Below, piece by piece: positions 18,381 to 64,000 of a DNA stretch of 64,000 bases. This stretch comes from Mobula hypostoma (Eukaryota). The notes under the pieces were generated by a model, which worked only from the letters and a program-made list of their open reading frames with translations, had not been told where the DNA came from and did no database searches. The position numbers and the translations under genes are program-made. Each line of letters starts with the position of its first letter. The stretch's first letter is position 1. The stretch is from the NCBI RefSeq assembly GCF_963921235.1, contig NC_086097.1:8122001-8186000 (forward strand), written 5' to 3'.

Positions 18381-18562
18381 GGAGTCAGAAGCACTGAATA
18401 GAAGTGAGCTGATTATTCCTCAGCATCTATTGAACTGCATCCCAATGACAGTGGCAACAGTAAATACACTCTCTGACAATTTTTTAAAATCCAGAATTGC
18501 TTCAACAGAGCAAATACAATCCCACTATTTTAAAGGAGGGAAGGAGAAAACAGGGAACTATA

Positions 18563-26509: not shown

Positions 26510-26865
26510 GGACATGTGGCAGAGGTGGCGTGGGTGCAGACACACCCAGCCCTGGGACACCAGGCAAGGTCATTTGATTCCAAACAATTGGCTTATGGAT
26601 CATTACTGAATGTTTTTTCTGGGGCTTCTTGCTTCCTCCCCCTTTCCCAAACATGATTTCCCTCCCCCTGTCCCCTTCCCACTCTCAGTCCACAATATAG
26701 ACCCATATCAGGATCAAGTTTATCATCACTCACATATGTCATGAAATTTGTTTTTCTCACGGTAGCAGCAGAATGCAATACATAAAATTACTAAAATACT
26801 GTGCAAAAGTCTTCAGCACACTACCTGTATATACAGTTTGTGCCTAAGACTTTTGCATAGTACTG
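26510..26865 (-). mobile_element. Truncated copy of the palindromic-terminus MITE
   Basis: Reverse complement matches ~18563-18905; ends tagtactg-TA. Confidence 0.75.
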
Positions 26866-28729: not shown

Positions 28730-31700
28730 AGTTTACTCTTCAAGAAGGGAGCAACGCCTGTTAGTCTGTCCTCAGTGGTTGGGAAGATGCTGGAGTTGAG
28801 TATTGAGGATGAGGCACATGCAAAAATAGGCCATAGTCAGCATGGTTTCCTAAAGGAAAAATCTTGCCTTGCAAACCTGTTGGAATTCTTTGAAGAAGCA
28901 ACAAGCAGGAAAGACAAAGGAGAATCAGTTGAAGACCTTTGACAGAGCCACACATGAGGCTGCTTAACAGGCTATAAACCCATGGTGTTACAGGAAATAT
29001 CCTAGCATAGATAAAGCAGTGGCTGACTGGCAGGAGGCAAATAATGGGGATAAAAGGAGTCTTTTTCTGACTGGCTGCTGGTGACTAGTGATGTTCCACA
29101 GGGGTCTGTGTTGGAACCAATTCTTTTTACATTATATGTCAATGATTTGAATAATGGAATGGATGGGGGTTTTTTGCAAAGTTTGCAGACGATATGAAGA
29201 TAGGTGGAGCGTAAGATGGTGGCATCCGTTAGTCTCACGAGACCATGGACCTGCGCCTGGAAAGTCTTGCTTCAGTCTGTATTAGAGCAGCGTCTGTTGT
29301 GGCTGTGGAGACCCACACGGGAGTGACAGTCTCGGCTGCAGCGACTGCAGTTGAAGGCGCTGTCCTCCAGTGTTGTCTTGGTGCTGTTTCTCCGGCGAGT
29401 GTGCTTTTCTTCAACAGCCAGACTCAGCTTCTTTTCTCCTCTTTTTAGACCTCTGCGTAGTTCCAGCCTCCAGTGAGAGCGATTGCTCGCGGTGTTCTCC
29501 CACCTGTCGACATTCATTTTCAGTGACTTCATGTCTCTCTTGCAAACATTCTTTGAAACGAAGATGGGGCTGCCCTTGTGCTTTCTTGCCAGAGGCCAGT
29601 TCCCCGTACAGCAGGTCTTTCGGGATCCTCCCATCTGACATGCAGTGTACGTGGCCCAGCCAGCAGAGACGGCCTTGTTGGAGCAGGGTGAAGAGGCTGG
29701 GTATTTGGGCACGGGCCAGGACCTCATTGTTGGTGACTCGGTCAATCCACGTGGTGTCCAGGATGCGTCTCAGGCTGCGAAGGTGGAAGGCGTTGAGACG
29801 CCGCTCTTGTCTGTAGTAGAAGCTCCAGGTCTCGCTGCGTAAAGCAGTGTGCTGAGGACACAGGCCCTGTAGACTGCAACTTTGGTGTGCGTCGTCAGCT
29901 TTCTGTTCTCCCAAACTCTCTTTGTCAGCCTGGCGAATGTTGAGGCTGCTCGTCCAATCCATCTGTTGATCTCGGGGTCTAAGGAGAGGCTGTCCATGAT
30001 GGTGGAGCCAAGGCATGTAAACTCGTGAACTACCTCCAGCTCATAGTTGTTGATGCAGGGGGGTGCTCAACAACTTGGCCCTACACGTTGGTCTTCGTCA
30101 GGCTGATGGTCAAGCTGAAGTCCTGGCAGGCTCTTGAGAAGCTGTCCATGAGGCGTTGTAGTTGCTCTTCAGAGTGTGTTGCCAGTGCCACGTCGTCTGC
30201 AAACAACTTGTCCCTGATGAGTACTTCGCGAACCTTAGTTTTCAGACTGAACAAACTGAAGAGCCTCCAGTCCGATCTAGTGTGGAGGTGGACACCATCA
30301 GTTGATATTCCAAAGGCGTGCTTCAGCATGACTGTGAAGAAGATGCCAAACAAGGTGGGGGCAAGCACACAGCCCTGCTTCACACTGCTGCGGATGTTGA
30401 AGGCCTCCGAAGAAGAGCCATCGAACTGAACGACGCCCTTCATGTCTGTGTGGAATGACTGAACTCTCCTGAGGAGCCTTGGGGGACAACCAATCCTGGC
30501 AAGGATTTTGAACTTTTCTCTTGTAGCTGTCGAAGGGAGAAGATCGTGTCGATTGTGGAGCGTTCTGACCTGAAACCACACTGAGACTGGGGATATACCT
30601 TTTCGGCTATTTTCTGCAGTCTGTTCAGGACCACGCAGGCAAAGACCTTCCCAACGATGGTCAGCAAGGAGATTCCCCTGTAGCTGTTACAGTTGCTTCT
30701 GTCCCCATTGTTCTTATATATGGTGACAATGTTGCAGTCTCATGTTGCGACACTGCTCCCCCTATCCAGTACCGGCACAGTAGTTCGTGCAGGTGGTTTA
30801 GTAGGACGCCCTTTGCGCATTTGATGGTCTCTGGTGGAATGCCATCCAATCCTGGTGCCTTCCCAGTGGGCAGGCTGTCGATGGCTTTACTCAGCTCTTC
30901 GGCAGTCGGCAATGCATCCAGTTCCTCCATGACAGGCAGGCATTCCACGGCGTCTAGTGCACTGTCCGAGATGCTGTTTTCTCTGGAGAAGAGTTCAGAG
31001 TAATGGTCCACCCATCTCTCCATCTGCTTGCCTTTGTCATTGATGGTCTCGCCTGTTATGGTTTTCAATGGTGCTGTCCATATGGGAGTCGTGGTCGGCG
31101 CCCACTCTGGCGTTGAAGTCGCCAGGTAGCAGCAACTGTTCCTGACTTGGGATCTCCTGTATCATCATTGAGAGCTGGTTGCAGAACTTGTCCTTTTGTG
31201 TCTTGTGTAGAGTAGAGGGTTGGGACATAGACACTGACAAGGTTGACAGGCCCATCAGATGTGTGGAGTCGAAGTGAGAAAATCCACTCTGACCCTTTCT
31301 GGCTAGGCTCTACCATCTTCAGCAGCGAGTTCTTCACCGCAAAGCCGACACCATGCTCTCAGGTCTCGTCTGAGCCCTTCCCCTGCCAGAAGAAGGTATA
31401 GTCTCTCTCACGTAGGGTTCCCGATTCTGCGAGACGTGTCTCTTGGAGCATTGCGATGTCCACTCGGAGTCTCGACAGTTCATTGTTAATCACTGCTGTC
31501 TTGCGTGTGTCGCTGATCTCCCGAAGGTCATGTGATATACCAGTTGTCATGGTCCATATATTGCAGCATCCTAGTCTGAGTGCTGGCTTCTTTCTTTGTC
31601 TTCTAGTTGTGCTTGGTGCGGCGCTTACAGTCCGCAGTTCGGGCTGCTTGTATCCCCAAGCCCCACGCACCCAGTGGAGCGGGCGGACTGTGGAGGGACA

Positions 31701-33027
31701 GCACCTAATTGTCTGGGGGCTGCCCTGCTTGAGGCGGACGGTAGCTGTCCAGTGAGACGTGACGGTCTCTCCCTCCGTCGAAAGCAACCCCTGGCACCTT
31801 CCTCTACGCCAGTCGAGCGCAGGCTTATAACCGGTAGACTGCTCTTTTCCGTGTCACTGTGAGGTAATGCTGGAGTGTCCTCTCCAGGGCACAGGCCTGG
31901 GCAAGGTTGTAAGGAAGACCGGCAGTTGCCCATGCTGCAAGTCTCCCCTCTCCACGACACCGATGTTGCCCAGGGGAAGGGCAAGGGCCAATACAGCTTG
32001 GCACCAGTGTTATCGCAGGAGTTGCCAGAACGAGGTTGAAGGGAATGTCAGACTGCCTTAGGGACTCCAGCTCTGGATTTGTCCTCAGGGTTTACTCTTG
32101 AAGCCTTTCCTTGCCAGTAAGGAGGGTAAGGTAGTTTTGAGGAATTAGAGAGGCTACAGAGGGACTTAGACTGATTAGGAGAATGTGCAAAGAAATGGCA
32201 GATGGAACACAGCATCGAGAAGTGAATGGTTATGCACTTTGGTAGAAGAAATGAAAGGGTCAACGATTTTCTAAATGGAGAGAAAATACAAAAAAAAACT
32301 GAGGTACAAAGGGACTTGCGAGTCCTTAGGCAGGATTTCCTGAAGGTTAATTTGTAGGTTGAGTCTGTGGTGAGCAAGGCAAATGCAATGTTATCATTCA
32401 TTTCAAGAGGACTAGAATATAAAAGCAAGGAAGTAATGTGGAAACTTTATAAGTCACTGGTGAGGCCTCACTTGGAGTATTGTGAGCAGGTTTGAGTGCC
32501 TCATCTTAGAAAGGATGTGTCAAAACTGGAAAGGGTGGAAAGGAGGTTCATAAAAAGGATTCCAGGATTGAATGGCTTGTATTATGAAGAGCACTTGATG
32601 GCTCTGGGTCTGTATTCACTAGAATTCAGAAGAATGAGGGGTGACCTCATTGAAAACTATTGAATGGTTAAAGGCATTGGTAGAGTCAATGTGGAGAGGA
32701 TGCTTCCTATGGAGGGAGCATCTAAGACCAGAGGACACAGCATCAGAACACAGGGGCGTCCTTTTAGAATGACGATGAGGAGGAATTTTTTTAGCCAGGT
32801 ATTGGTGAATCTGTGGAATTCTTTGCCACAGGTAGCTGTGGAGGCCAAATCTTTGTGTATATTTAAAGCAGTGGTTGGTAGGTTCTTGATTGATCAGGGC
32901 ATGAAGGGATATGGGGAGAAGGCAGGAGATTGGGGTTGAGAGGAAAAATGGATCAGCCATGATGAAATGGCAGAGCAGACTTGATGAGCCAAGTGGTCTG
33001 ATTCTGTTCCTATATCTTACGGTCTAA
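28730..33027 (+). mobile_element. CR1 3' fragment split by an RTE insertion
   Basis: SQHGFLKEKSCLANLLEFFEE; VPQGSVLEPILF; KFADDMKIGG; resumes at 32121; tail attctgttcctatatcttacggtct. Confidence 0.88.
29216..32120 (-). mobile_element. RTE-clade LINE (APE endonuclease + RT + C-terminal zinc finger), defective
   Basis: LRLGCCNIWTM, DIAMLQETRL, LLPGDFNARVG, KAPGLDGIPPE, SQCGFRSERSTID, VKQGCVLAPTLF, LFADD, CSRCSRDCHSRVGLHSHNRRC. 10-bp TSD ggagcgtaag (29206-29215)/ggagggtaag (32121-32130). Frameshifts and internal deletions near 31080 and 30520. Confidence 0.93.
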
Positions 33028-46684: not shown

Positions 46685-46785
46685 AGCACAACACATACAA
46701 AATGCTGAAGGAACTCGGCAGGCCAAGCAGCATCTATGGAAAAGAGTGCAGTCGACGTTTCGGGCCAAGACCCTTCAGCAGCGCG
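46685..46785 (-). mobile_element. Penelope pLTR fragment with a hammerhead-like motif
   Basis: CTGCTGA-AGGGTCTTGGCCC-GAAAC-GTC-GACTG on minus, 46781-46749. Confidence 0.7.
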
Positions 46786-46792
46786 AAGGGTT

Positions 46793-47240
46793 TAGTCCTA
46801 GTGAGACGTGGAAGAAGCCTTGCCCGAAATTACCCCATGGTGCCCAGAACCTCCAAGTGCCAGAAACATCCACTACAGACAGAGTAGCAGAACACTGGCA
46901 GGTTAAGTGGCCTCCGGTAAGCTGAGGGAGGGAGTGGTTACAGTTTGAGGAAGAGCTATTGGAGCCTCTAGAGATGGGGTTTAGACATTTTGCTGGCTGC
47001 TTGCTGTATAGAACCTACTTTCTCCTTCGCATTACGGGGGACTGCAAAGAAAAGAGCCATCTGGATCATCACAGAAGCTGCTGAACAGGCCTCCAGATGG
47101 CTACGGTTCAAGACCTACGACACAGGACCTGATCAGCCCTGTCTGGGTCGCCTGGGTGAGAGTGTCAGATGTTGAAAGACCTGATGACCCCAGGTTACAT
47201 CACTGACGATGTGACCCAGTGCGTCCTAGGAGGTACCTTA
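46793..47240 (+). mobile_element. Internally deleted Hero-type non-LTR element (N-terminal piece + C-terminus + 3' UTR)
   Basis: PHGAQNLQVP...QVKWPPVS*GREWLQFEEE (compare QAKWPAANKKEWLQLDED at ~59.05 kb) joined to EPLEMGFRHFAG...TAKKRAIWIITEAAEQASRWLRFK. UTR gggtcgcctgggtgag...ggttacatcactgacgatgtg. Confidence 0.75.
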
Positions 47241-47269
47241 GCACTATATAGATAAGATGGTAGTGGGTT

Positions 47270-48705: not shown

Positions 48706-51700
48706 TAGACTAAACACTGCACACCTACTAAGGAAGAAGTTCATAAAGAAATGCTCTCCAGTTGCATTCTGTTTAAATAAATAGTCAGAATGTTTAGTGG
48801 TTTTATGCATTGCTCATACCCAATTGTCCTTGATGTATTGTGCTCTAACCATCCATAGTCCCATTGCAAATTTGATGGTTTACATCTCAGGATAATTCAA
48901 TCTACTTCATTATTTTCTGTCAGATTTTATCTTCCTTCTTATGGATAACCAACACAATGTCATTGTGATTAGATGAAATAACTGGATGGAAAATGTGATA
49001 GAATCATAAGCATGCTTTGCCGCTTCAAGGCTATTTGAGCTGTTTCAGCGATAACATGCATTGCTTTGCAACTTCATTCTTGTCATACTCATGATGAATA
49101 CTTCTCTGTCTGTTTGTCATTCCTTGCTCTCAAATACGACAAGATCAGAGGCGGAGATTATTCACCAAAAGCAGTACGCGCAAAGTGCAGCTTCCCTATT
49201 GGATGCCTCTGATCCCCTTTTCCATCGGTAAATATTTGGGAGATGCAGCAGCTGTGCTGGAGATTATGTTCAATCAGCACAGGCACCTGTCTTTCTCCCC
49301 ATGTCCAATGGCATGGAATTCATTTAATTCACCTTGGAAGGATGAAAGGCTGAATTATTCCTGCACACATTGAAACAGAGAAGCTTCTGTCCCTAAATGT
49401 AACACTTGGACAACACTGGTGTTTGATCAGCGGGCTCGGACAGCTTCAAATGGAACCCATAATTCCCTACTCTTTGCTGCATTCCCCCAGCCCCCACAGT
49501 TGTTGCCAGCAGATGTATGTCACATCAATATTACAGTTTACACAACTGCGGCAACTGGACGATGACATCAGCTGCTGTTATAATAAGTAGAAATTCTAAA
49601 ACAACTTATGAAAACACCAAAACCACATGATCGCACTTTGCTGCATGTAGTGCTAAAATAGTATTCCCAGAGCTGAAGGCGTCCACCTCAAGTATTTCAG
49701 TTCTGAATTCAGCACTATTGTCCCTCAAACGTTGGCAAACAAGCTCCTACTCCTTGGTCTAAACGCACCGCTGTGCAAATGGAGCGTTGAAATTCCAAAC
49801 CAATAGATCTCACAAAGTCTGGATGTAGAACTGCTCCTCCCTCCCCATCATCCTCAACATGGGTGCTCCCCCACTTGTGTACTGGAAATGACATGGAATA
49901 ATCTTTGAAACAAGTTATTGAATCCATGAACACTCACCTCTCATCAGAGAAAGGAAGAAAAATAGAGCTACATAGGAGATAAGGGTTAAATTGACTGTAG
50001 AGTAGGTTAAATCTTCTGGAATATATTTCTTATGTTGACGTTAGTCAGTTTATTGGTGGTAATATTATTTTATATGTTGTGTGTGTGAGTTATATGTACT
50101 GTGTTGAGCACTTTGGTCCAGAGGAACATTATTTTGTTTGGCGGTATACATTTGAATGACAATAAACTTGAACTTGAACATAAACTTGTAAAGACTGGCG
50201 TAATATTGTGAGCCAAGGGGTCTGTAGTGTGCTGTATGCTCTGATTGGTGGGTTTTCCATTGTATCGGACAGTGACGGATTTGTGCAATTCAGTTGTGTG
50301 TTCATAGGTGGCTGCCGAGTCCAAGTTGTGAGTGATGTAGATGTCCACATTAAAGGCATGAAAACTCTGCTGCATCTGGAAGTCGAGCCATTGTGACTGC
50401 TTTCCTTCTTTTCTAGTCAGCAATTAGTACTGCTCGGCATCTCTCTTCTAATCAAGGCTCACCAGTTACCCCAGTCTTGTGCACTCTGTTCCAGCCATTC
50501 TGGCACAGCCCAGCGTGTGCATGTTAGCTTTCACACAGTCTTTGAATCTCTTACGGGATATGCCTTGTTTCCTTTAAATTAACTTTCCATTCTTTCCCTG
50601 CTCCCATATAATTATTTAACTTTGCATTAATGAATCTATTATTCACCTACAGTTTAATGTGGTAAATTTTAAATTCCAACCATTTCTGACTAAATAATTC
50701 CATAATTTATGGTATAATTTTATTAAATTATGATTGTATTTTACTAATAGGGTTCCTGGACTTCCTGTGAATGCCTGAAAGAAAACAAATCCCAGGGTTG
50801 TATTATTTAAAATTTTTATTTATTGAGATACAGCAGGGAACAGGCCATTCTGGCTCTTCAAACCATGCTGCCCAGGAATCCTCTGATTTAATTCTAGCCT
50901 AATCTTGGGACAATTTGCATTGAGCAATTAACCTACTAACTGGTATGTCTTTGGACTGTGGGAGGAAACCAGAGCACCCAGAGGAAACCCACACTGTCTA
51001 GAGGAGAACTTACAAAGTCCTTACAGGCAGCATTGGGAATACGGTGACATATCTGCACTTTGATAATAAATTTACTTTGAAGTTTGAACATAATATTAGC
51101 ATTATGCCCTCTATATCAGGTTTGGTCTACAAGCGTGTATCCAACCCCATCAAAGCTGTCCTAAGCAATGTGTGAAGAGGTACTGTAACTATCTAGGCTG
51201 TGTACTGTGCTATCAGTTAGTGTGACTGGATCAAATCAATCAGCACAATCGTGTAGTGTCTCCTGTTTCTTTACATCTGACCTTTCTTGATGAACTTCCC
51301 AGTGTTAATTGCAACATTTAATCAGCCCATTTTTCAAAGGATGCCTAATGCTTTTATCGCTAACTAGGAGTTAGTGAATGAAGTTTGTTGTTTGTTTGAG
51401 TGTTTTGATGCATGCAGATCTTTAACATGGAGGAATGGAAAAAAATAGAAATTTAATATCAGAAGGTCAGAAAGTGTAGAAATAGAGAAGGGCATTGAGC
51501 AGAGCAAGTGAAGTACTCTCTTTTTCAGAATTGCGTACATTGGTTAGCAATATCTTTCACTCTGTGACGTAAATGCTTATTTGTCAATCATAATTCAGTC
51601 TGAAAATGATCTGGATAAAGTATGAATTTGTAAGTGGATTTAATCAATCTCAAATGGTATCTGGATCCCAGAAGAGATGAAATTCAGTGATATATAACTT

Positions 51701-52039
51701 GTAAGTAAACTTGCACTTAATTCTAAAAACATTTAATCTTCTCCCGTCTAAGTATATCTTCCCATTTGTTTTAGTTTTCTTGACAATTTTCTCCTTTCTT
51801 ATGCTCCTTGGAGTACTGGTTCTCCAATTCCCCACCTGAATGCCTGTACATAACTCATGGATAAGTATTGACAGGGCATGTGGACAGAAATACATCATGG
51901 CAGTACCATTGTGAGAGTGCTGGATCCTCTTTTCATCCAACGGCCACACATCTAGCAGAATTTATTCGATGCAGGCCAAGAACAAGAAAGCATTTTTTCC
52001 TCTCTCTTGTGACCAGGGATTATTAAATGCATATTTGAG

Positions 52040-52390
52040 TGTTTGAGCAAGTTACTGAAGAATAACATAATTTCTATGGGTACAAAACTCAGAGTGTTGC
52101 AGCGCTACGTTCATTCCACACTAACGCATGGAAGTGAATGTTGGACAACATCAAAGCAAATTGAGGAAGACTTGAAGCTGCAGAAATATGGTTTTTGAGA
52201 AGAATGATGAAAGTATTGTGGAAGGCCAGAGTAACAAATCAGGAAGTGTCGCAAAAAGCCGAATAAGAAGAGAGCTGACATCATCAATCAGGAAAGGGCA
52301 GATGGAATTTCTGGGACGTGTACTGTTAATGGATGGACAGAACAAAGTTTTGAAGGGCTTGGTAGAGCTTCTCAGATTAAAAACAGATGG
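52040..52390 (+). mobile_element. RTE-BovB-like LINE C-terminal fragment
   Basis: LLKNNIISMGTKLRVLQRYVHSTLTHGSECWTT; RRELTSSIRKGQMEFLGRVL. Confidence 0.7.
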
Positions 52391-52527
52391 AAGACCATGA
52401 TCACCCATGTCATACTATATGACAAACAATAATGATGGTGAGGGACCTGAGTTTAATTCCAAGTCTGTTCCTGTAACCACATGAGCTTCCTTTAGGTGCC
52501 CTGTTTTTTTCATCAAATCCTAATTGA

Positions 52528-52820
52528 TGCCACAGTGGCGTCGTGGTTAGTGTGACACTGTTACAGCTTGCGATGTTCCAGAGCTCAGAGTTCAATTCCA
52601 GCAACATCTAAAGGATTTTGTGCATTCTTCCCGCGACCGTATGGATTTCTTCCGAGTGCTCCAGTTTCCTCCTACAGTCAAAAGACGTACCGGTTCGAAG
52701 GATAAATGCTCACTGTAAATTGTGCTGTGATTATGCAAGTGTTAAATCAGGGGTTGGCTGGGTGGCACGGCTCAATGTGCCAGAGGGGCCCGTTCTACGC
52801 TGTATCTCTAACGAATGATG
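52528..52820 (+). mobile_element. Near-full-length tRNA-derived V-SINE (HE1-like)
   Basis: A-box-like tggcgtcgtggttag, B-box gagttcaattcc, core cttccgagtgctccagtttcctcctacagtcaaaagacgt. Confidence 0.78.
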
Positions 52821-52929
52821 AGATGGTTTATAGGTTAATTATCGCTGTTAAGAGAAGGGGCAATGTGATCTGGTAATTGTAACACTCTACTCTGCAGTCT
52901 GTTATTGTTTCCTCCTGGTACTAATTTAC

Positions 52930-53305
52930 TTAGGTGGCAGGGTTGAGATATATCTCTACCAAAGGAAGGGTAAAAATCTCCGTCCCTCTGCTAGCCTGCG
53001 CGTCATCTTTGGGCAAGGTGTAGCATATGCTTTGACACCGATCAGGGTTGCATGAACTCATGGGAGCAGGTGGCAGATGGTTGTATCAGCAGCTGGAGCA
53101 TATCACCAGTCCTGGTTATGTGACCACTGACACCAGGCAGACAATCTCTGAAGAGTATTGATAATGGCTGGGATCACCATCTTGTAAAGACGCTGCCCAG
53201 AAGGAAATGGCAAACCACTTCTGTAAAAAACTTTGTCAAAAACAATCATGGTCATAGATAAGACCATGATCGCCCACGTCATATGACACGGTACAAAACG
53301 AACAA
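52930..53305 (+). mobile_element. Short RTE/BovB-like non-autonomous element (type B)
   Basis: Tail gaaggaaatggcaaaccacttctgta...gaccatgatcgcccacgtcatatgacacgg; two other copies in the window. Confidence 0.8.
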
Positions 53306-53326
53306 ACTATCTCAGTGCATCGATAT

Positions 53327-54515
53327 TGTCACAATGGGGGTGCTGGTAGTGAACCCAAATGCTAGACACAGACACTGAAGTACAAGGAACAGGACTTAAC
53401 TAGAGTAGGGATGTGAAAGGATACAGACAAGGAGCACAGACAAGAACACAGACTAGGGCTTGGACCTTGAGCCAGAGACTGGACAAGGACCCAGAACCTG
53501 GGTCTTGCCTCGGGCTTGGGCCCCAGAATCAGGCATGCACATGACATGACTGCAGGACTGGAGGCTGGGGTCTTGAGGCTTGAGATTGGAGACAGGCTTG
53601 GGGTCTTGGGGCTTGAGCTTGGAGACAGGCTTGGAGTCTTGGGGCTTGAGCTTGGAGACAGGCTTGGGGTCTTGGGGCTTGAGGCCTGCAGGCTGGGGTC
53701 TTGAGGGTTGGGTCCAGGGTACTTTGAGGCTTGGGTATGGACTCCAAGACAGAGACTGGGCAAGGACCCAGAACCTGGGACTTGACTCGGGCTTGGACTC
53801 CAGAACTAGGCGAGGACAAAACGAGGCTACAGGACTGGACATGGGTTGGGTGTGGGATGCTTGGGTAGGGCGAGATACAAGGACAGGTAAAGGCACATGG
53901 ACAGGACTCAAATAGGACTGGACTAGGCACGGACTGGACGAGGGCCTTCAGGAGCACAGAGCCTTGGACTAGAAGAGACAGGAGCACAAAACCAGGACCC
54001 CTCCTTGGAACAGGATGTAGGGCCAGGACTCACACAGATAACACAGAGCCAGGACCCCTCCTTGGGAACAGGATGTAGGGCCAGGATTCATACACAGAAC
54101 ACTGAACATGAAGAGATGGATCCCAACACAAGGTGGTGGCAAATGGTCAGACCTACCTAGCGAAGGCGTGGACACAGAGAGACAATGCCACACAACGAAA
54201 GACAGTTCCTTATCTTGACCTAACAAGGCTCCGGTCTTGCTCCAGCAGTAAGACTTCAGCGATACAGGCAGGGTATACAGGTGGGGTATCCAGGCTAGGT
54301 GAGCAGGCAGAGAGTCAGGCAAGGGAGGAAAGACAAGGAGCAGAACAGAACAGTCCAGCAGGGAATCCCTGGTTTGCAGAGGTATTTATGTCTCAGCCCC
54401 AAAACGAGAAACATGTGCCCACAACAGAAACTGGGGAAAACCAGAAACCCCAGAACAAGGAACCATGGACCGGACCGTGAACTGGAACACGGACTTTACG
54501 GACTGGACTATGACA
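53327..54515 (-). mobile_element. Solo LTR (1189 bp, Gypsy-like) with internal tandem repeats
   Basis: TGTCAC...ATGACA; 5-bp TSD GATAT (53322-53326, 54516-54520); inverted homologue of 19862-21456. 33-bp units at ~53567-53700 and ~57-bp units at ~53992-54100. Confidence 0.88.
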
Positions 54516-54885
54516 GATATTATGAAATGATCTGCATGGTTGGCATGCAAGCCAAAGTTTTTCACTGCATGTTCTTTCATGTGATAGTGATGAAACAATT
54601 TACTAATTTTATCAGCCAATGGGAATGTTAAGGGAATAGAATAGGATAAGTTTGGGATTAATATAAATGAGTGTTTGCCATGGGTGAAGCATTTGCTCCT
54701 GTGTAATATGACACCATGATTCAAAAGATTCCATAAAAAAAAGTATCCTGTGAGAGAATGGCAGAGAGGGTCAGTGAATTCTGGTTTTGACATAGGTCAC
54801 AGAATTCCTCAGTCACATCAAATGGAAAATGAGACCACCACCAATGGGAATATGCTGAATAGGAATAATCAGCAGAACTCGTAAG

Positions 54886-55320
54886 AAGATTCAAGATTGT
54901 TTGATGTCATTTCCAATACACAAGTGTAAAGGAGAACAAAATAATTGTTTTTCTGGATCCAATGCAGCACAATAAAACATAATAAGACAAAGAACACAAT
55001 AATAAAGTAACACAATATAAATAAATACATAGCTTATATACCATACATGGACTGATCGTATGTCCATAAGTGACACTTGGCACGCGAGTGTCTGTATATA
55101 AGGGCACTGGGAAGAAATGATAAAGCAGTGCTGACAGGGGGTGTGGAGGGGTGGAGATGTTGATCAGCATTACTACTTGAGGAAAGTAACTGTTTTTTAG
55201 TCTGGTGGTCCAGACATGGATGCTATATAGTTCCTTACTGACGGGAGTGGGCTAACCGGTCCATGAGCAGGGTGGCAGGGATCCTTCATGATGTTAATGG
55301 CCCTTTTTCTGGAACCTGTA
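54886..55320 (-). mobile_element. Rex1-type 3' fragment
   Basis: RKRAINIMKDPCHPAHGPVSPLPSVR; inverted tail aagattcaagattgtttgatgtcatttcc. Confidence 0.75.
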
Positions 55321-55472
55321 TATACAGTACTGTGCAAAAGTCTGAGGCACATATATATAGTCAGAGTGCCTTTGACTTTTGCACAGTACTGTTGTAATTG
55401 TATGTATTGCACAGTAATACTGCGCAAAAAAAATCATGACACGTGAATGATGATACACCTTTGCATTCTTTC

Positions 55473-55726
55473 CCGGCCATGTCTGCTATGCAGCCTTCCC
55501 TGCCAGTATCCTCCTCCAACCCTGCTAGGCAAGTACCTCTGACATGCCCCTGTAATTCCCTTTACTCCATTGTGATACTGATACATGAGAGTAATGCTTC
55601 TCCCTCTCAAATTTCAGTATGAATGCAATCATATTATGATCGCTGCCTCCTAAGGGTTCTTTTACATTAAGCTCCCTAATAAGATCTGAGTTAATACACA
55701 ACACTGAATGTAAGATAGCCTTTCCT
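55473..55726 (-). mobile_element. Inverted CR1 ORF2 piece (end of the APE endonuclease)
   Basis: KAILHSVLCINSDLIRELNVKEPLGGSDHNMIAFILKFEREK...WSKGNYRGMSEVLA. Confidence 0.8.
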
Positions 55727-58700
55727 CATTGGCCTCTTCAATCCGGTCTTCCCAGGAAACAGTAGGTTCCAGCAGGACCACTTGCTTCGTAGACTCCGAT
55801 ATTAACACCATGTCCTGGTGGAGCGGAGTGGCTGCGATGTTTTCTGGGAACTTGAGCGGCCTCCCTAGGTCGACTTGGAGCTGCCAGTCTCGTGCAGTGG
55901 CAAGAAGACGTCCCGAGGAGCTAGGCTGATGTCGAGCCTTCTCCCCCACTCTGTTGAAGGTGATGGACTGTTTGGGAGCATGCTGATTTTTGCTGTCTTG
56001 AATCGCTGTGCTGACTGCGTCCGCCACAGACCTCAGGACTTGGACATGACGCCAGCGGTAAGGCCCTTCCCCCAACGCCTTCGGACAGCAACTTAGGATA
56101 TGCTCCAAGGTTGCCCCTCTTCTTTATACCTTATACTTTATTGTCGCCGAACAATTGGTACTAGAACGTACAATCATCACAGCGATATTTGATTCTGCGC
56201 TTCTCGCTCCCTGGATTACAAATCGATAGTAAATATTAAAAATTTAAATTATAAAGCATAAATAGAAAATAGAAAAATGGAAAGTAAGGTAGTGCAAAAA
56301 AACAGAGAGGCAGGTCCAGATATTTGGAGGGTACGGCCCAGATCCGGGTCAGGATCCGTTCAGCAGTCTTATCACAGTTGGAAAGAAGCTGTTCCCAAAT
56401 CTGGCCGTATGAGTCTTCAAGCTCCTGAGCCTTCTCCTGGAGGGAAGAGGGACAAATAGTGTGTTGGCTGGGTGGCTCGTGTCCTTTATTATCCTGGCAG
56501 CACTGCTCCGACAGCGTGCGGTGTAAAGTGAGTCCACGGACGGAAGATTGGTTTGTGTGATGTGCTGCGCCGTGTTCACGATCTTCTGCAGCTTTTTTCG
56601 GAATTGGACGGGACAACTTCATACCAGGTTGTGATGCACCCTAGAAGAATGCTTTCTACCGTGTATCTATAAAAATTAGTGAAGGTTTTAGGGGACGGGC
56701 CAAATTTCTTTCGTTTTCTCAGGAAACTGGAGTTTTCTGGCACAGTTGGCATGCTGGAGTGTTTGCCATGCCCCACCTGTGCAGGTTGTCTGGGCTTGGG
56801 AGAACGTCATAGACTGATTGGATGAGAAACTTGATGTGCAATGGTTCGGCTCTCCAGAGCTCTGTCCGGGTTAACTTGCGAGGTTCCGCATGCTCCTATC
56901 TAGTCCAGGTGCCTTGTTTATACATGCCGGCCATCTTGCTGTATCGTTCTTCCTCCACTTCTGCTTGTATCTCCTTCTGAACCAGTTGACACTTCTCCTT
57001 TCCACGGGTTTTGTCATAGCATGGTTTGGGAAAACAGCCCGGTCCTGCCTGCCCCACCGTCACAGTGCCCACCAAACTGTTGTGCCGCAGCCGTGCCTCC
57101 GCTCTGTCGACAGCTTCCTGTGCCTGCCACTTCCTGCCGGTCCTTACACGGATTCCTGCCGAAGCAACTTTAACATCAGAGGCGTCTCAGTACATCATAA
57201 CCTCCCTGGCTCGAGTGACTCTGAATTCCTCTGATAGGCCGCTGATGGGGAGCTGCAGCTTGGCGGGATGCCCATACAGGGCAATGCTGCTTAAGGTCCG
57301 GGGGAGCCCTAGCCACCTCCGGAGAGACTGACTGATGGTCTTCTCCAGAGCCTCCACTGTTGACATTGTAGACCAGAAGGGGCCAGAGTAGCCTTGGCAG
57401 GACTCCGTGTTGGTACATCCAGGCTCTGAATTTTCCTGGAAGCCCCGATTTCTCAATCGCGCTGAGCCAGGTTATCAAGTCGCTCCTCGTTTGTTGAAGT
57501 GCGGCTGTGTCCTTCAGGGAACTGTCGAAGATCTTGCCCAGGCTCTTGACTGGTTTTTCTGTCACCATTGGAATCTGGATCCCTCCCAGGGTAAAGTGGA
57601 ACCGGTCGGCCACTCTTCCCTCCTTCGGGACCACAGACCTGGACTTGGCTGGTTTAAAGGTCATCCTTGCCCATGAGATGAGCCGTTCCAGCCCTTGAAG
57701 GAGCCATCTGCACCCAGGGACGGACGTTACCATCACCGTCAGGTCATCCATGAATGCTCGTATGGGGAGCTGCCGAGTACCAGAATCTAGACATGGGGCC
57801 TCCACATTCCACCTCCGCTGACTTGACAATCATGTTCATGGCCAGTGAGAAGAGTGATAACGAGATTGTGCAGCCAGTGATTATGCCCTTCTCCAGCCGA
57901 TGCCAGGTGGATGTTAGTGACCCTGAGGAGACTCTCAACCTGAAGTTGCTGTAATAGTCCAGAATGAGGTTTCGGATCATCTCTGGAACATGGTGTCTTG
58001 TCAGTACTGTTTCAACGAGCTTGTGTGGGATGGATCCATAAGTGTTGGTTAGGTCAAGCCAGAGTGCTGCAATGTCTCCTCTGTTTTTCCTTGCCTCCCG
58101 GATCAGCTGGGTCACCATTCCTGTGTGCTCTAGGCATCCAGGTACTCCTGGGACTCCCCCCTTCCGTACTGAGGTGTCTGTGTGTCCATTCTTCAAGAGG
58201 AACTCAGTTAAACATTGGGCCACAATCTTGAAGAAGATCTTCCCTTCAACGCTGAGCAGTGAGATAATACGAAACTGCTCGATGTTGCTTGAATCTTCTT
58301 CTTTTGGTATCCAGACACTGTCCACGTGCCTCCACTGAGCAGCGACCTTTCCTCTCCACCAGTTCACCTTTAAGATCTTCCAGAGTCACACAAGGAGCCT
58401 TGGGCCCTGCTTGTAGACTTTGTAAGGCACTCCGCTAGGACCAGGGGCGGAACTTGCTCTTGCTGCTTTGACTGCTTCTTTGACATCTTTCAGGGTGGGC
58501 TCAGAGATGTTGAATTGGGTCACCGGTTCTGGAGGTGTCACCAGTGCCTCACACAGGCTGAGGTTCGGCTCCTTCGAGATGTCATTAAAAGTGATATTGA
58601 GATGGTGGTTTATCTCCCCCACAGAACAAGTGAGGTGGCCACTTCGCTTCTGTCCTAGTATCCTCTTGGTGAAGCCAAAGGGATTGGTAATGAAAGCACT

Positions 58701-59113
58701 GCGCTTTCGGGCCCTCTCTTTGCCCTTCCTTTGGTGCCACTCAGCCCACCTGAGTGTGATGAGCCTCCTCCTCATGATATCTGTGAGGTCTGACAGGGCA
58801 GTTTTCTCCTTCTCCTTGGCCAGCTTAAATTGATGCTTCAGAGATTTGAGTTCTCATCTCTGCTGGCTGATCTTCAGTTCCCGCCAGTTTGGTCCCGCTG
58901 GATTACTTGTTTCATGCTTTTCCTTGACGCCAAACCGTTCTGAGCCTATTCTCGTTATGAGGGTGTACATAGTCCGGAGCTTCTGGTCAGCATTGCCCTT
59001 CGATATCGCCCCCAGAATCTTGTCTACATCCTCATCCAACTGGAGCCACTCCTTCTTGTTAGCGGCAGGCCACTTTGCCTGACGCTGTTCCGACTTTCTG
59101 CTTATTGGGGGAA
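55720..59113 (-). mobile_element. Hero-type (R2/NeSL group, RLE endonuclease) non-LTR retrotransposon, truncated at both ends
   Basis: FRIISLLSVEGKIFF, KGGVPGVPGCLEHT, WLDLTNTYGSIPH, GIITGCTISLSLF, AFMDD, CQLC...EHILSCC, YRWRHVQVL, DMVLISESTKQVVLLEPTVSWEDRIEEANE; frameshifted. Confidence 0.9.
56122..56732 (-). mobile_element. Rex1/Babar 3' fragment inserted in the Hero zinc knuckle
   Basis: FYRYTVESILLGCITTWY; RIIKDTSHPANTLFVPLPSRRRLRSL...SFFPTVIRLLN. Sits between CQLCQK and TLEHILSCC. Confidence 0.88.
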
Positions 59114-62037
59114 CTAGGAATAGTTCACAAGGCGCAGGATAGATATGTTCCACAGATGAAGAAGTTCTCAAATGGCAGGGGTAGGCAACCGTGGCTGACA
59201 ACAGAAGTTAAGGATGGCATAAAAGTCAAGGAAAGAGCATACAGTATAATGTAGCAAAAATGAGTGGGAAGTTGGATGATTGGGAAGCTTTTAAAATCCA
59301 ACAAAAAGCAGCTAAAAAATCAATCAGAAGATGAAATATGAGGGCAGACTAGTCAATAATATAAAGCAAGCTACCGGAAGTTTTTTTCAGTTATATAAAT
59401 AGTAAAAGAGAGGAGAGAGTTGATATTGGACCACTGGAAAATGATTCTGGTGATGTAGTAATGGGGGACAAAGAAGTGACAGATGAATTTAATGGGTACT
59501 TTGCGCTTGTCTTCACTGTGGAAGACACTAGCAGTGTGTTAAGGTTCCATGACTGTCAGGGAGAATCAGTGGGTGTTATTGCTATCACAAAGGAATAAAT
59601 GCCAGACAAACTCAGCTGTCTTAAGGTAGATAAGTCATGTGGACCAGATGGACTACGTCCCAGAGTCCAAAGAGAGATTGCTGAAGAGATAACAGATGGA
59701 TTGGTCATGATCTTTCAAGAATACTTGATTCTGGCATGATCCCAGTCCCAGAGGAGTGGAAGATTGCTAGTGTCACTTGTATCAAGTCAAGTCAAGTCAC
59801 TTTTTATTGTCATTTCAACCATAACTGCTGGTACAGTACACAGTAAAAATGAGACAACGTTTTTCAGGACCATGGTGCTACATGAACAATACAAAAACTA
59901 CACTGAACTATGTAAAACTATGTGAACTATGCAGTAGGTTGGTGTCAGTCCAGGCTCTGGGTATTGAGGAGTCTGATGTCTTGGGGGAGGAAATTGTTAC
60001 ATAGTCTGGTCGTGAGAGCCCGAATGCTTCGATGCCTTTTTCCAGATGACAGGAGGGAGAAGAGTTTGTATGAGGGGTGCGTGGGGTCCTTCATAATGCT
60101 GTTTGCTTTACGGATGCAGCGCGTGGTGTAAATGTTTGTAATGGCGGGAAGAGAGACCCTGATGATCTTCTCAGCTGACCTCACTATCCACTGCAGGGTC
60201 TTGCGATCCGAGATGGTGCAATTTCCGAACCAGGCAGTGATGCAGCTACTCAGGATGCTCTCAATACAACCTCTGTAGAATGTGGTGAGGATGGGGGGAG
60301 GGAGATGGACTGTTCTCAGCCTTCGCAGAAAGTAGAGACGCTGCTGGGCTTTCTTTGCTATGGTGTTGAGGGACCAGATGAGATTCTCCGCCAGGTGAAC
60401 ACCAAGAACTTTGGTCTCTTAACGATCTCTATGGAGGAACCGTAGATGTTCAGTGGAGAGTGGTCGTTCCGTGTCCTCCTGAAGTCAACAACCATCTCTT
60501 TTGTTTTGTTCACATTCAGAGACACGTTGTTGGCTCGGCACCAGTCCGTTAGCCGCTGCACCTCCTCTCTGTATGCTAACTCATCATTCTTGCTGATGAG
60601 TCCCACCACGGTCGTGTCATCAGCGAACTTCATGATGTGGTTCGAGCTCTGCTCTTTAAAAAGCAGGAAAGCAAAATAAAGGAAATTATAGGCCAGTTAG
60701 CCTAACTTCAGTGGTTGAAAAAGAGTTGGAGTCTATTATTAAGGACAAGGTTTCAAGGTAATTGGAAACTAATGATAAAATGATTTAAAGTCAACATGTT
60801 TCCTGTGAAGAGAAATCTTGCCTAACAAATCTGTTTGAGTTCTTTAAGGAAGTAACCAGCATCGTGGACCAAGAAGAGATAGTGAATGTCAGTTACCTGG
60901 ATTTTCAGAATACATTTAATACGGTGTCACACATGAGGGTACTTGACTAGGTAAAATCTTATGGAATTACAGGAAAGGCAATGGCATGGATAGCGGAACA
61001 GCTAACAGGCAGGAGGTAGCAAGTGGGAATAAAGGGGAACTTTTCTGGCTGGCTGCTGGTGACTAGTGGTGTTCCACTGAGGTCTCTATTGAGACTGCTA
61101 CTTTTCACATTGTTTGCAGTGATCTGAATAATGGAATTAATAGCTTTGTGGCAAAGTTTGCGGATGATATGAAGATAGGTGGAGGGGTAGGTAGTGCTGA
61201 GGAAACAATGTGATTGCAGCAGGACTTAGACAATTTGGAAGAAAGGGCAGAAAAGTGTCAGATGGAATACAGTGTTGGGAAATGTATGATAATGCATTTT
61301 GGTAAAAGGAACAATAGTGAGGACTATTATTTAAATGGGGAGATTATTTAATGGGGAGTCCTCGTGCAAGACTCCCAAAAGTTTAGTTTACAGATTGAGT
61401 CTGTGGTAAAGAAGGCAAATGTAATGTTGCCATTTATTTCAAAGGGAATCTTAATATAAAAGCAAGGAGATAATGCTGAGCTTTTAGGCCACTGGAGCTG
61501 TCAACAGTTTTGTGCCCTATATATCAGAAAAGATGTGATGTAATTGGGGAGAGTCCAGAGAAGGTTCACTAAGATGATTCCAGGAATGAAGGGGTTAATA
61601 TATGAGGAGCATTTAGCAGCTTTGTGCCTGTACTCACTGGAATTTAGAAGAATGTGGGGTGACCTCATTGAAAACTACCGAATGCTGAAAGAACTAGTTA
61701 GGGTGGATGTGGAGACGATGTTTCCTATGGTGGGGGTATCCAGAACTAACGGGCACAGCTGCAGAATTGAGGGGTGACCCTTTAGAACAGAGGTTAGGAG
61801 GAATTTTTTTAGCAAGTGAGTATTAAATCTGCGGAATGCTCTGCTGTGTTGGACGCCAGTTCCTTGCATATATCTAAGGCGGTATTTGATAATATCCTTA
61901 TCGGTCGGGGCATCATAGGATATGGCGAGAGGCAGGTCTATGGGGTTGATTGGGATCCAGAATCAGCCATGTTAGAATGGCGGACCAGACTTGATTGGCT
62001 GAATGTCCTAATTCTGCTCCTATGCCTTATGATCTTA
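59114..62037 (+). mobile_element. CR1 ORF2 (post-endonuclease through RT) and 3' UTR, split by a Rex1
   Basis: LGIVHKAQDRYVP...QPWLT; YFALVFTVED; WKIASVT | LFK; KFADDMKIGG; tail attctgctcctatgccttatgatctta. Confidence 0.9.
59779..60648 (-). mobile_element. Rex1/Babar 3' fragment including the RT core
   Basis: MKFADDTTVVGLISKNDELAYREEVQRLTDWCRANNVSLNVNKTKEMVVDFRR; IMKDPTHPSYKLFSLLSSGKR; (TTGAC)n tail. Confidence 0.92.
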
Positions 62038-63478
62038 CGAGTCCACTCCGCCATTTCATCATGGCAGATCCATTTTTCCTCTCTGCCCCAATCTCCTGCT
62101 TTCTCCCCATATCCCTTCATGCCCTGACCAATCAAGGATTATTAACCTCTGCCGTTAATATACATACAGACTTGGCAGCAACCTCCACTGATTCTCCACT
62201 CTCTGGCTAAAGAAATTCCTCCTCATTTCCACTCTATCAGGACACTCCCTCATTCTGAGGCTGTGTCCTCTGGTCTTAGACTTTCCCACTATAGAATACA
62301 TCAACTCTAACAAGGGCTTTCAATGAGATTGCCCCACATTCTTCTGCATTCCAGTGAGTAGAGGCCTCGAGGCATCAAACGTTTTTCATATGATAAGCTT
62401 TTCAAACCTGAGTTCTTTTTTGTGACATGACCATACACTTCTCAACACTGTATTGCATCTGCCACTTGTTTGTCCATTCTTCTAATCTGTCTAGGTCCTT
62501 CTGTAGCCTCTTGACTTCCTCAAAGTTACCTGCCCCTTCATCCATCCTCATACCATCTGAAAATTTTGCAACAAAGCCATCAATTCCATTATCCAAATCA
62601 TGAACATATAACATAAATAGAATCGTTTCCAACACAGACGTTTTATGGGACACCGCTAGTCACCGGCAGACAGTCAGAAAAAGGTCCCTTTATTCCCATT
62701 CTTTGCCTCCTGTCAATCAGCTACTACTTTATCCATGCTAAAATTTTCCTTGTAATACCATCGACCCGCAGCTTGTTAAGTGGTCTCATGTGTGGCAACT
62801 TGTCAAAGGCCTTCTGAAAATCCAAAGACACAACAGCAACCAATCCTCTTTTGTCTACCCTGCTTGTTATTTCTTCAAAGAGTTCCAACAGATTTGTTGG
62901 GCAAGACTTTCCCTTGAGGAAACCACACTGACTATGGCCTATTTTAGCATTTTAGCATGTGCCTCCAAATACCTCGAAACCACATCCTTAACAAGTCAGC
63001 TGCAACATCTTCCTAATCTCTGAGGTCAGGCTATCTGACCTATAGTTTCCTTTTACTTGAAGAGTGGAGTGACGTTTGCAATTTTCCAATCTTCTGGAAC
63101 CTTTCCAGAATCCATTGATTCTTGAAAGATCATTACTAATGCCTCCACAATCTCTTCAGCCATCTCTTTCAGAAACCTTGAGTGTACACCATTGGGTCCA
63201 GGTGACTTATCTACCTTCAGTCCTTTCAGTTTTCCAAGAACCTTTTCACTAGTAATGGTAACTTCACACTCTTCATGACCCCTGATACCTGGAATTTTCA
63301 CCATACTGCTAGAGTCTTCCACAGTAAAGACTGATGCAAAATACTTGTTCAATTCATCCACTATTTCCTCCATTATGACCTCTCCAGCATTGATTTTCAG
63401 TGGTCCGATATCCAATCTCATCTCTCTTTTACACTTCATGTGTCCTTCTTAATATTATTGGCTTGCTTACTTTCGTAT
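62038..63478 (-). mobile_element. CR1 remnant with an internal deletion, tail-to-tail with the preceding CR1
   Basis: LNKYFASVFTVED...KSPGPNGVHSRFLKE...VPEDWKIANVTPLFK; FVAKFSDGMR...LQKDLDRLEEW. Confidence 0.88.
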
Positions 63479-63637
63479 GGCAGCATCCATCATTAGGGAC
63501 CCTCAGCATCTAGATATGCCTGATCCTTACTAATATTTTGGGAGGAAGTACTGGAGCCTGAAGACCCACAGTTATTATTTTGGGAACAGTTTCTTCCCCT
63601 ACCCTATCAGATCGCTGAGTGGTCCATGAACACTGCC

Positions 63638-64000
63638 TCATAGAGTCATAGAAAAGCACAGCACAGGAACAGGTCCTTCAGCCCATCTAGTTCATGCTGA
63701 ACTATTTTAACTGCCTAGCCCATTAACCTGCCCTCCATACCTCTACCATCTCTGTACCTAGCCAAACTTCTCTTAAACTTTGAAATTGAGCTTGCATTCA
63801 CCACTTGCACTGGCAGTAAGCTCCACACTCTCACGACCCTCTGAATGAAGAAGTTTCCTCTCATGCTCCCTTTAAGCTTTTCACCTTTCACCCTTAACAC
63901 ATGACCTCTGGTTATAGTCCCACTCAACTTTGCTGGAAAAAGTCTGCTCGCATTTACCCTGTATTTACCCCTTATAATTTTGTATACCTCTGTAAAATCT
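63638..64000 (-). mobile_element. CR1 3' end, runs off the window
   Basis: TRGHVLRVKGEKLKGSMRGNFFIQRVVRVWSLLP; inverted tail tcatagagtcatagaaaag. Confidence 0.85.

Follow-up and report, generated by a model that had tools for sequence, protein, structure and literature searches.

The window analysed here, a stretch of 64,000 nucleotides from a ray-like fish genome, contains a 3.6-kb flipped segment made of parts of two dead retroelements from different families. One is presumably a CR1 LINE and the other presumably a Hero element, both named from their protein matches. Three further LINE pieces (54886..55314, 56112..56734 and 59778..60651) are presumably Rex/Babar-like. The features of the locus are, from left to right:

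54886..55314, minus strand: LINE 3' end belonging to the left flank, 73-82% to four window paralogues
55319..55458, plus strand: hairpin and LINE-tail repeat, cut at about 55459, left of the inversion seam; 74-75% to paralogues at 18559 and 26868
55459..55474, plus strand: unassigned spacer of 16 nt, seam J1; 15 of its letters match those at 50583
55475..55725, minus strand: CR1 piece a, endonuclease end, ORF2 residues 249-330, inverted; 2 stops in 82 codons
55725..55727, minus strand: junction J2, where Hero passes into CR1 without a change of sense; some 3 nt fit either element, by back-translation only
55728..56111, minus strand: Hero from the zinc knuckle into the restriction-like endonuclease; P0007 residues 869-1003, 70% identity, no stop or frameshift
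56112..56734, minus strand: later LINE 3' end inside Hero, 89-91% to two window paralogues
56735..59113, minus strand: Hero reverse transcriptase and the N-terminal region before it, lacking the initial ~85 codons and the 5'UTR; P0007 residues 76-870, 75% identity
59114..59777, plus strand: CR1 piece b1 (residues 334-553), opening at seam J3, where some 2 nt could equally be Hero
59778..60651, minus strand: older LINE 3' part inside CR1; RVT_1 and PF09004 matches
60652..62035, plus strand: CR1 piece b2, residues 558-997, 3'UTR and tail; 9 stops and 4 frameshifts in 422 codons; the tail aligns with those of 8 further copies in the window
62036..63442, minus strand: right flank, another CR1 on the opposite strand; it lacks its final ~45 nt, the cut coinciding precisely with the end of the focal tail

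The CR1 assignment is based on an ORF2 that is collinear with P0123 (Exo_endo_phos, RVT_1), a CR1 ORF2 of 1002 amino acids, and with a Mobula protein. This ORF2 comprises an AP-type endonuclease and a reverse transcriptase, and the window paralogues carry a short 3'UTR with a stem-loop and a repeat tail. The inverted piece (minus strand, 55725-55477) corresponds to residues 249-330 of P0123 with 55% identity (E 4e-27). A sequence-only reading of the window had placed the start of the plus-strand CR1 at about 59114 as the continuation of this piece, and P0123 is indeed matched from residue 334 onward at 59114, following on residue 330. Also as described there, the two pieces are collinear but lie on opposite strands (residues 249-330 minus, 334-997 plus), with a near-full-length Hero in between. 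The plus-strand CR1 is real from 59114, but it is split by a second insert of 0.87 kb (59778-60651), which shows 18-25 differences in 189-243 nt to three family contigs among those listed. Rfam gave 0 matches across 52000-64000.

At the DNA level, family contigs put a gap of 5-6 nt between the two CR1 pieces. The 114 family contigs matching from 59117 have a loose upstream end, and its final 21 letters correspond to the terminus of the inverted piece (16/21 alike). The frameshifted beginning of piece b matched 0 of 38 candidate proteins; a neighbouring CR1 copy was used as the protein query instead (27 of 2240 candidates). Among the 15 CR1 pieces of the window, the focal pair is the only one that is residue-adjacent on opposite strands, none of the 13 others pairing in this way.

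Hero was assigned on 70-76% identity over 927 codons to fish proteins, with RVT_1 and zf-RVT found on P0007. Its single ORF, with a reverse transcriptase followed by a zinc knuckle and a restriction-like endonuclease, agrees with the description of the clade in the available sections of PMC9004415 and PMC4640811, and fish and lancelet members are closest. The element covers residues 85-1013 of the 1097-aa relative P0003 (59111-55719, minus strand); the part at 56735..59113 has 4 stops and 2 frameshifts (RVT_1, E 3.7e-13), and at the 55728..56111 side the last ~85 codons and the 3'UTR are absent. The 3.4 kb of Hero reported earlier break off within the restriction-like endonuclease, but only about 2.76 kb belong to Hero, the rest being the later 0.62-kb insert 56112-56734. 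Hero family contigs join 56111 to 56735 in 4/4 runs and do not contain this insert. The sequence-only reading had seen no Hero 5' remainder left of 55473 and no 3' remainder after the CR1 tail; a profile search likewise found no fitting remainder of the Hero N-terminus, C-terminus or 3'UTR at the flanks or elsewhere in the window. The same profiles picked up, as a positive control, an unrelated Hero remnant at 46767-47247; this was considered as the missing part and rejected, since residues 85-118 are present in both it and the main copy and the two are just 70% alike over 66 nt. The number of Hero copies in this genome is estimated at a few dozen.

At junction J2 the relatives read on E-A-N-E-R-K-R-A-K-Y, whereas the window enters the CR1 frame right after the second E. 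About 3 nt (55725-55727) are therefore attributable to both elements, judged by back-translation of Hero proteins rather than Hero DNA across the point, and the proposed overlap of 8 nt shrinks accordingly. Metagenome searches yielded 4 Hero loci from 40 stretches (69-83% alike), none of which spans the J2 point. The exact J2 pattern had 0 matches in the metagenome contigs, a collection that hardly samples the host, so that this result carries no weight.

In the left flank of the flipped segment, the first 37 nt of the LINE 54886..55314 are present on an orthologous contig from organism C, which has 36 differences over 378 nt. The hairpin repeat next to it starts at the same letter as its paralogues at 18559 and 26868, both of which run on for about 190 nt past the focal cut, and this continuation has no further occurrence in the window, including the right flank. 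Two other paralogues, which have no hairpin, stop about 10 nt beyond the focal cut, so the end of the left repeat may be near-natural. The 45 nt absent from the right-hand CR1 were not detected at the left seam (joined-flank test p 0.09-0.18; two positive controls p<0.01). It is tempting by eye to see the J1 spacer as a decayed tail of the right-hand CR1; this was rejected at p 0.76-0.93 for the spacer alone and 0.09-0.18 when joined with the far flank. Possibly the spacer was copied as filler from 50583-50598, a weak indication as its boundaries were picked by the analyst (0.08 matches expected with at most 2 mismatches). From their sequence, the flanks are best described as two differently cut repeats and not as halves of one target site. 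No target duplication of 10-20 bp is present, the longest exact match over 99 cut pairs being 4 nt; this match between the left flank and the tail end overlaps the CR1 tail unit (chance 0.29). Inverted repeats were found neither at the seams nor flanking the flipped segment.

The comparison with read contigs covers 4 of the 24 listed read runs, and its statements apply to the matches listed (2044 joints and 555120 pieces lie beyond these). None of the contigs listed bridges J1, J2, J3 or the right junction at 62036. An uninverted CR1 between these flanks was not seen among the outgroup contigs listed; organism C showed the left flank only. An assembly error, in which a repeat-rich segment was flipped or mis-joined, would agree with three junctions that none of the listed contigs bridges. 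We regard it as very unlikely, given that the flipped segment has no flanking inverted repeats, that a mis-join is not expected to place the CR1 pieces 5-6 nt apart, and that three flanking or CR1 stretches matched same-species contigs with 0 differences. Also against it, six Hero sites in a row (58811-58861) have the same letter in one run of organism B as in the window, with a depth close to single-copy.

The two elements differ in age. Hero carries 4 stops and 2 frameshifts in 927 codons and CR1 12 and 8 in 720 (p 0.0006), which, corrected for stop opportunity and CpG, gives a CR1/Hero time ratio of 5.0 (95% interval 2.1-13.5). As CR1 is about five times more decayed than Hero, it did not land in Hero. 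Pieces a and b of CR1 are decayed alike (p 1.0). Other CR1 copies measured have 18-30 lesions per 1000 codons (6/6), Hero 6.5. Among the contigs listed, four high-depth Hero contigs of run X11 differ at 54 of 1139 nt (4.7%), two CR1 contigs at 49 of 356 (13.8%) and three contigs of the insert within CR1 by 8-10%; these are the longest pieces and not the nearest.

Twin-primed (5'-inverted) L1 insertions of mammals were reportedly described by Ostertag and Kazazian in 2001. The sequence-only reading transferred this mechanism to the locus: a chimeric Hero-CR1 RNA, from a fusion that would have arisen elsewhere, would have been retrotransposed through its CR1 3' end, by CR1 proteins, with twin priming. 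In its most far-reaching form, transcription from a Hero promoter would have continued into an old CR1, giving an RNA with the restriction-like endonuclease element ahead of the AP-endonuclease element, which CR1 proteins would have taken by its decayed 3' end. The inner geometry fits. As in twin-primed mammalian L1 (available sections of PMC2912911, PMC4245944 and PMC11702581), an inverted 5' segment is followed by a forward 3' segment ending in the intact tail of the element, and the break points are a few nucleotides apart on the element, within 1-10 nt on the RNA (residues 330 and 334; 5-6 nt on family contigs). A chimera would further derive J1 and J3 from one event and leave the CR1 tail intact, and an internal deletion of 5-6 nt would be the commonest twin-priming pattern, 1-10 bp deletions between the pieces having been found in 22 of 32 twin-primed L1 inserts (PMC11702581, available sections). 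The 4-nt match has the length of CR1 duplications, 3-5 bp (PMC4245944, available sections). The same inner geometry is expected from an in-place inversion, so the gap of 5-6 nt does not separate the readings.

Age, duplication, flanks and stem-loop argue against a retrocopy, and we consider the chimera unlikely. Its CR1 would have been mostly decayed already when mobilised (ratio 5.0), and none of the six other CR1 copies measured is near the lesion density of Hero. Of 6 CR1 3' stem-loops folded, the focal one is the least stable (-5.6 versus -7.4 to -12.2 kcal/mol) and lacks the common outer stem, damage that could be later than mobilisation. The 4-nt match, lying partly within the tail unit, is no more than chance would give. 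Twin priming preserves the target duplication (PMC11702581, available sections), whereas the locus, unlike twin-primed L1, has no 10-20 bp duplication and flanks that are not halves of one site. In further contrast to L1, the 3' end is CR1 and the inverted part is mostly an element of another clade, about five times younger. According to the available sections of PMC4245944, 5' inversions in cell assays came almost only from L1, and the L2-type ZfL2-1, with 5-bp overhangs, gave none; in the window, none of the 13 other CR1 pieces forms such a pair. If true, the chimera would be the first sign of CR1 twin priming and of CR1 moving several kb of foreign upstream cargo in a vertebrate germline, and would overturn the view that short-overhang, 3'-end-specific LINEs (CR1, L2) make no 5' inversions. 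No report of CR1 twin priming or of a Hero-CR1 chimera was found in the literature covered, outside which most subscription papers lie.

Twin priming of the old CR1 copy itself (a inverted, b forward), with a later Hero insertion at the inner junction and a deletion of the Hero 3' end, would fit the order of ages and the 5-6 nt gap, and also the fact that a and b have decayed equally. This reading is highly improbable all the same: Hero would have to strike the inner junction within a few nucleotides of a 2.5-kb element, a 5' inversion is required in a short-overhang clade (PMC4245944, available sections), and the absent 45 nt of the right-hand CR1 are not at J1. Also improbable, if less so, is an antisense insertion of Hero between CR1 residues 330 and 334, after which piece a would have been turned round, and the Hero tail and the 5' part of CR1 lost, through a deletion-inversion-deletion. 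The insertion would be of the common 5'-truncated kind, with only a few target nucleotides deleted, so that J3, the adjacency of the pieces and their order of age all follow from the most usual kind of event; CR1, which occupies 16158 of the 64,000 bases of the window, is an easy target, and the J1 spacer may be templated filler. The later break would have to hit within about 6 nt of the Hero 3' joint, however, and no Hero tail letters are present at J1.

Ordinary small inversions with deletion arise by end-joining or template switching. The age gap between Hero and CR1, together with flanks unfit for one landing site, makes a local DNA flip with losses likelier than a hybrid RNA. Probably a young Hero inserted next to an old CR1, after which the DNA was inverted in place and part of it deleted; the insertion of Hero may itself have been the cause. 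Genomic inversion plus deletion had been named as the alternative to the chimera, and on age, flank and duplication evidence it is now preferred. Like ordinary small inversions, the locus has short microhomologies, possible templated filler, loss of DNA at one break and no inverted repeats; there is no difference in kind, and the break points happen to fall in Hero and CR1.

Under the preferred reading, the focal CR1, which is decayed and nested, would have inserted first in the 3' end of another CR1 (62036), decayed and gained the insert 59778-60651. Much later Hero, the younger element, would have inserted left of CR1 residue 249 in the sense of CR1, and the stretch from the Hero 5' end to CR1 residue 330 would then have been inverted. 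Tentatively, the inversion may have taken place during the insertion (variant a): the 5' end of the Hero cDNA would have joined a second break inside CR1, and the free flank the other side of that break, so that Hero bridges one seam and the other is bare. A later inversion with deletion at the left break (variant b) is only slightly less probable. Finally, a deletion over about 3 nt of microhomology, where the Hero-CR1 junction now lies, would have taken the Hero 3' end and the DNA up to CR1 residue 249. In variant a a single deletion would explain all losses, namely the Hero tail, the CR1 residues below 249, the rest of the left repeat and the final 45 nt that the right-hand CR1 lacks. That Hero's 5' end falls on the inversion seam, as correctly noticed in the sequence-only reading, has a simple cause which that reading did not consider, as the seam can be Hero's own 5' joint. 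Two events, inversion and deletion, are needed, the 5-6 nt gap is equally compatible with twin priming, and the cut of the left repeat is read from 2 paralogues.

Variant a has a parallel in L1 retrotransposition-mediated inversions, as reported in the available sections of PMC11702581, 10.1101/2024.08.27.596794 and PMC13526784. Like these, the locus has a 5'-truncated retroelement bridging one seam, with Hero between a and b, and an insert-free reciprocal seam with few nucleotides lost, the 16-nt spacer standing alone at J1. The available sections of PMC11702581 give three L1 insertions inverting adjacent genomic DNA among 99 L1 and 235 pseudogene inserts, and also reciprocal junctions without insert for L1; those of 10.1101/2024.08.27.596794 state that L1-bridged reciprocal inversions arise from one or two events. 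In contrast to the L1 cases, the locus is germline and old rather than somatic, and its bridge belongs to a restriction-like endonuclease clade. This bridge does not keep a 3' tail at an endonuclease site, the Hero 3' end being gone and absent from the window, so the target-primed hallmark is unreadable. As a later deletion must be assumed, we do not class the locus as a retrotransposition-mediated inversion; with the mark of target-primed insertion lost, this sequence cannot demonstrate variant a.

Under the preferred reading, the locus is without function and is a record of break repair. It then merely adds to the complex rearrangements seen among dead repeats and is of little consequence, with value as a warning that adjacent break points on an element do not prove twin priming. 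If true, variant a would extend insertion-caused inversions, documented for human L1 in the available sections of the sources above, to a germline LINE of the restriction-like endonuclease type.

The DNA of the window is repeat-rich and vertebrate, and its CR1 proteins have their best named relatives in rays (Mobula, Hypanus). The labels Hero, CR1 and Rex/Babar are assigned on the basis of domain content and hits. Part of the stretch is present in 20 of 24 listed read runs, and the contigs of four runs were compared. The locus consists of the following features:

to about 55459: cut repeat of the left flank
between the cut repeat and piece a: spacer of 16 nt
55725-55475, minus strand: CR1 piece a
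59113-55728, minus strand: Hero
56112-56734: later insert inside Hero, skipped by Hero family contigs in four of four runs
59114-62035, plus strand: plus part of the focal CR1 (piece b), its tail abutting the right-hand CR1
59778-60651: insert inside the focal CR1
62036-63442, minus strand: right-hand CR1

The Hero stretch recognized in the sequence-only reading is Hero but contains the later insert, and the plus-strand CR1 does begin at 59114 but is interrupted by an insert of its own.

The two pieces of the focal CR1 lie on opposite strands and are collinear, in agreement with that reading. Aligned to a CR1 ORF2 reference of 1002 residues (P0123), piece a covers residues 249-330 and piece b runs from residue 334 onward, with the same placement on a Mobula protein as second reference; this is the sole residue-adjacent pair on opposite strands among the 15 CR1 pieces of the window. 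In run X11, the loose upstream end of 114 family contigs matching from 59117 agrees with the end of piece a, and 5-6 nt between the pieces are unaccounted for on these contigs. The 8-nt overlap claimed for Hero and CR1 shrinks to about 3 nt, because in relatives the second E is followed by R-K-R, which is not the case in the window. Elsewhere, a CR1 at 28736-32933 is interrupted by about 2.9 kb (29209-32120) with weak reverse transcriptase matches on the minus strand.

Aligned to a fish protein of 1097 residues, Hero covers residues 85-1013 and so lacks about 85 codons at either end. No Hero remainder came up near either flank, as had been read from the sequence, when 120 relatives, profiles built from 63 N-terminal and 64 C-terminal pieces, and a profile of the 3'UTR served as queries; the same searches did detect an unrelated Hero remnant at 46767-47247. 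This short, internally deleted derivative (plus strand) belongs to a different subfamily from the main Hero; its N-terminal piece (71 residues at 48% identity, E 5e-19) runs straight into the final ~60 codons and the complete 3'UTR, and it could be a member of a non-autonomous Hero family. In a metagenome contig (L001 2159-2222) a Hero has lost its endonuclease through internal deletion, so that loss of this region is not unique to the window copy; another (L004 137-241) lies directly behind a Hero 3' end.

The CR1 was in place long before Hero. Frameshift-aware alignment counted 4 stops with 2 frameshifts over the 927 Hero codons and 12 stops with 8 frameshifts over the 720 of CR1 (9 frameshifts with the second reference), a difference with p 0.0006. 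With stops corrected for codon make-up and CpG decay, the CR1/Hero time ratio is 5.0 (95% interval 2.1-13.5). Decay is equal in pieces a and b, and the number of lesions per 1000 codons is 6.5 in Hero but 18-30 in all six CR1 copies measured among the 13 other pieces. Among the matches listed, Hero contigs of run X11 differ at 54 of 1139 nt (four pieces), CR1 contigs at 49 of 356 nt (two pieces) and contigs of the CR1 insert at 8-10% (three pieces); these differences point to the same order of age but were given less weight, being the longest pieces rather than the nearest relatives and including only contigs of at least 85%. CR1 therefore did not insert into Hero.

If this were a retrocopy, its two flanks should be halves of a single target. 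On the left, the flank consists of a hairpin-plus-tail repeat; the two paralogues with the same starting letter extend about 190 nt further, a continuation found nowhere else in the window, whereas two hairpin-less paralogues stop only ~10 nt beyond the focal cut, which counts against truncation. The right-hand CR1 is cut exactly at the focal tail and lacks its last 45 nt, which a profile of nine tails did not find at the left. When the spacer was joined to the DNA beyond the intervening repeats on its left, p was 0.09-0.18 (two positive controls, p<0.01). Over 99 cut pairs the longest suffix-prefix match was 4 nt and overlaps the tail unit; 29% of random pairs reach this length by chance. A duplication of 4 nt is of CR1 length, so this match is compatible with an insertion, but it excludes a duplication of 10-20 bp, the size that accompanies 5' inversions in cells. 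The spacer, with hand-picked boundaries, has a match of 15 in 16 letters at a distance of 4.9 kb on its left side (0.08 expected), a weak hint that it may be templated filler.

A ~70-nt hairpin occurs at 55319-55392, 18559-18619, 19046-19118, 26797-26868 and 9637-9693, three of them starting at the same letter; one X11 contig extends from the end of a LINE ORF into this hairpin, which may therefore belong to a LINE 3'UTR. At 62036, 36682 and 23030-23075, CR1 3' ends either are cut at the terminal stem-loop or meet tail to tail close to it, with a similar tail-to-tail joint in contigs of two of the four runs; a CR1 preference for CR1 3' ends is possible. A purine-rich element with internal repeats has two copies in opposite orientation (53337-54515 and 19862-21437), 72-87% alike in pieces.

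The likelihoods given here for all origins are judgements, not computations. Retrotransposition of a chimeric Hero-CR1 RNA with twin priming, proposed in the sequence-only reading, would explain the left seam and the start of the plus CR1 together, and the internal geometry, with its 5-6 nt gap, fits; the flanks do not, and we consider this origin improbable. It needs target deletion, twin priming within a short-overhang clade, and recognition in trans of an already decayed CR1 end, whose stem-loop is the weakest of six folded (-5.6 kcal/mol), while such LINEs are thought to require their own 3' end (PMC3747384). 5' inversions in human cells occurred almost only with L1, once with Nimb-2 and never with ZfL2-1, and target duplications of CR1 and L2 peak at 3-5 bp (PMC4245944); among recent L1 of human and chimpanzee, 30.9% carry a 5' inversion (PMC2912911), and inverted inserts retain 12-18 bp duplications, with 1-10 bp internal deletions in 22 of 32 (PMC11702581). 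No report of CR1 twin priming or a Hero-CR1 chimera was found in the literature searched, most subscription papers lying outside it.

Every model requires a same-sense Hero-CR1 joint with the Hero 3' end lost; the models diverge on the left seam and the start of the plus CR1. With the flanks failing the twin-priming tests, we favour as most likely the alternative already named in that reading, genomic inversion with deletion, here in place among dead LINEs, which in one form or the other is the probable origin. Hero would have inserted left of CR1 residue 249, oriented like the CR1, and everything between the Hero 5' end and CR1 residue 330 would have flipped. Tentatively, the Hero insertion itself may have caused the inversion: its cDNA 5' end would have been joined to a second break within CR1 and the free flank to the other side of that break, so that a Hero 5' end at the seam would be expected and a single later deletion would account for all four missing pieces. 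Almost as likely as this form, the inversion instead followed the Hero insertion, the left break losing DNA. The sequence itself shows collinearity, the age order, the cut flanks and the missing pieces; the ancestral order, and when and why the stretch flipped, are inferred.

The locus looks like an insertion-bridged inversion, but without the tail that would prove membership. L1 cDNA intermediates recombine with distant breaks (PMC13526784), L1 bridges reciprocal inversions (10.1101/2024.08.27.596794), inverted genomic DNA accompanied three inserts and reciprocal seams sometimes had no insert (PMC11702581); Hero has a restriction-like endonuclease and mostly no target specificity (PMC4640811, PMC9004415). 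Antisense Hero insertion between CR1 residues 330 and 334, with a subsequent break no more than 6 nt from the Hero 3' joint, depends on coincidence and is quite unlikely. Coincidence is likewise needed for twin priming of CR1 alone with Hero then hitting the inner junction, which is very unlikely, and for mis-assembly, to which we give equally little credence; among the matches listed for the four runs, none bridged the left seam, the Hero-CR1 joint, the start of the plus CR1 or the right junction.

Run X3 shows 0 differences over 54500-54915, 54930-55199 and 60731-61033. Run X6 (organism B) differs at 6 of 414 positions in the left flank and agrees with the window at six Hero sites in a row at a depth of ~12.8, and this Hero copy is therefore probably common to organisms A and B; in run X9 (organism C) the left flank is present with 36 differences in 378. 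For the family of the insert in Hero, summed depth in A and B is roughly 6-13 times higher than that in C and E, a sign of a possible recent burst. Summed depth over Hero is ~80-800 against ~8 for single copy, which suggests tens of copies, roughly, as summed depth is not a copy number. The Hero reverse transcriptase (56735-59113) reaches 79-81% identity to bony-fish proteins, high for a cartilaginous host, and horizontal transfer of Hero is a possibility.
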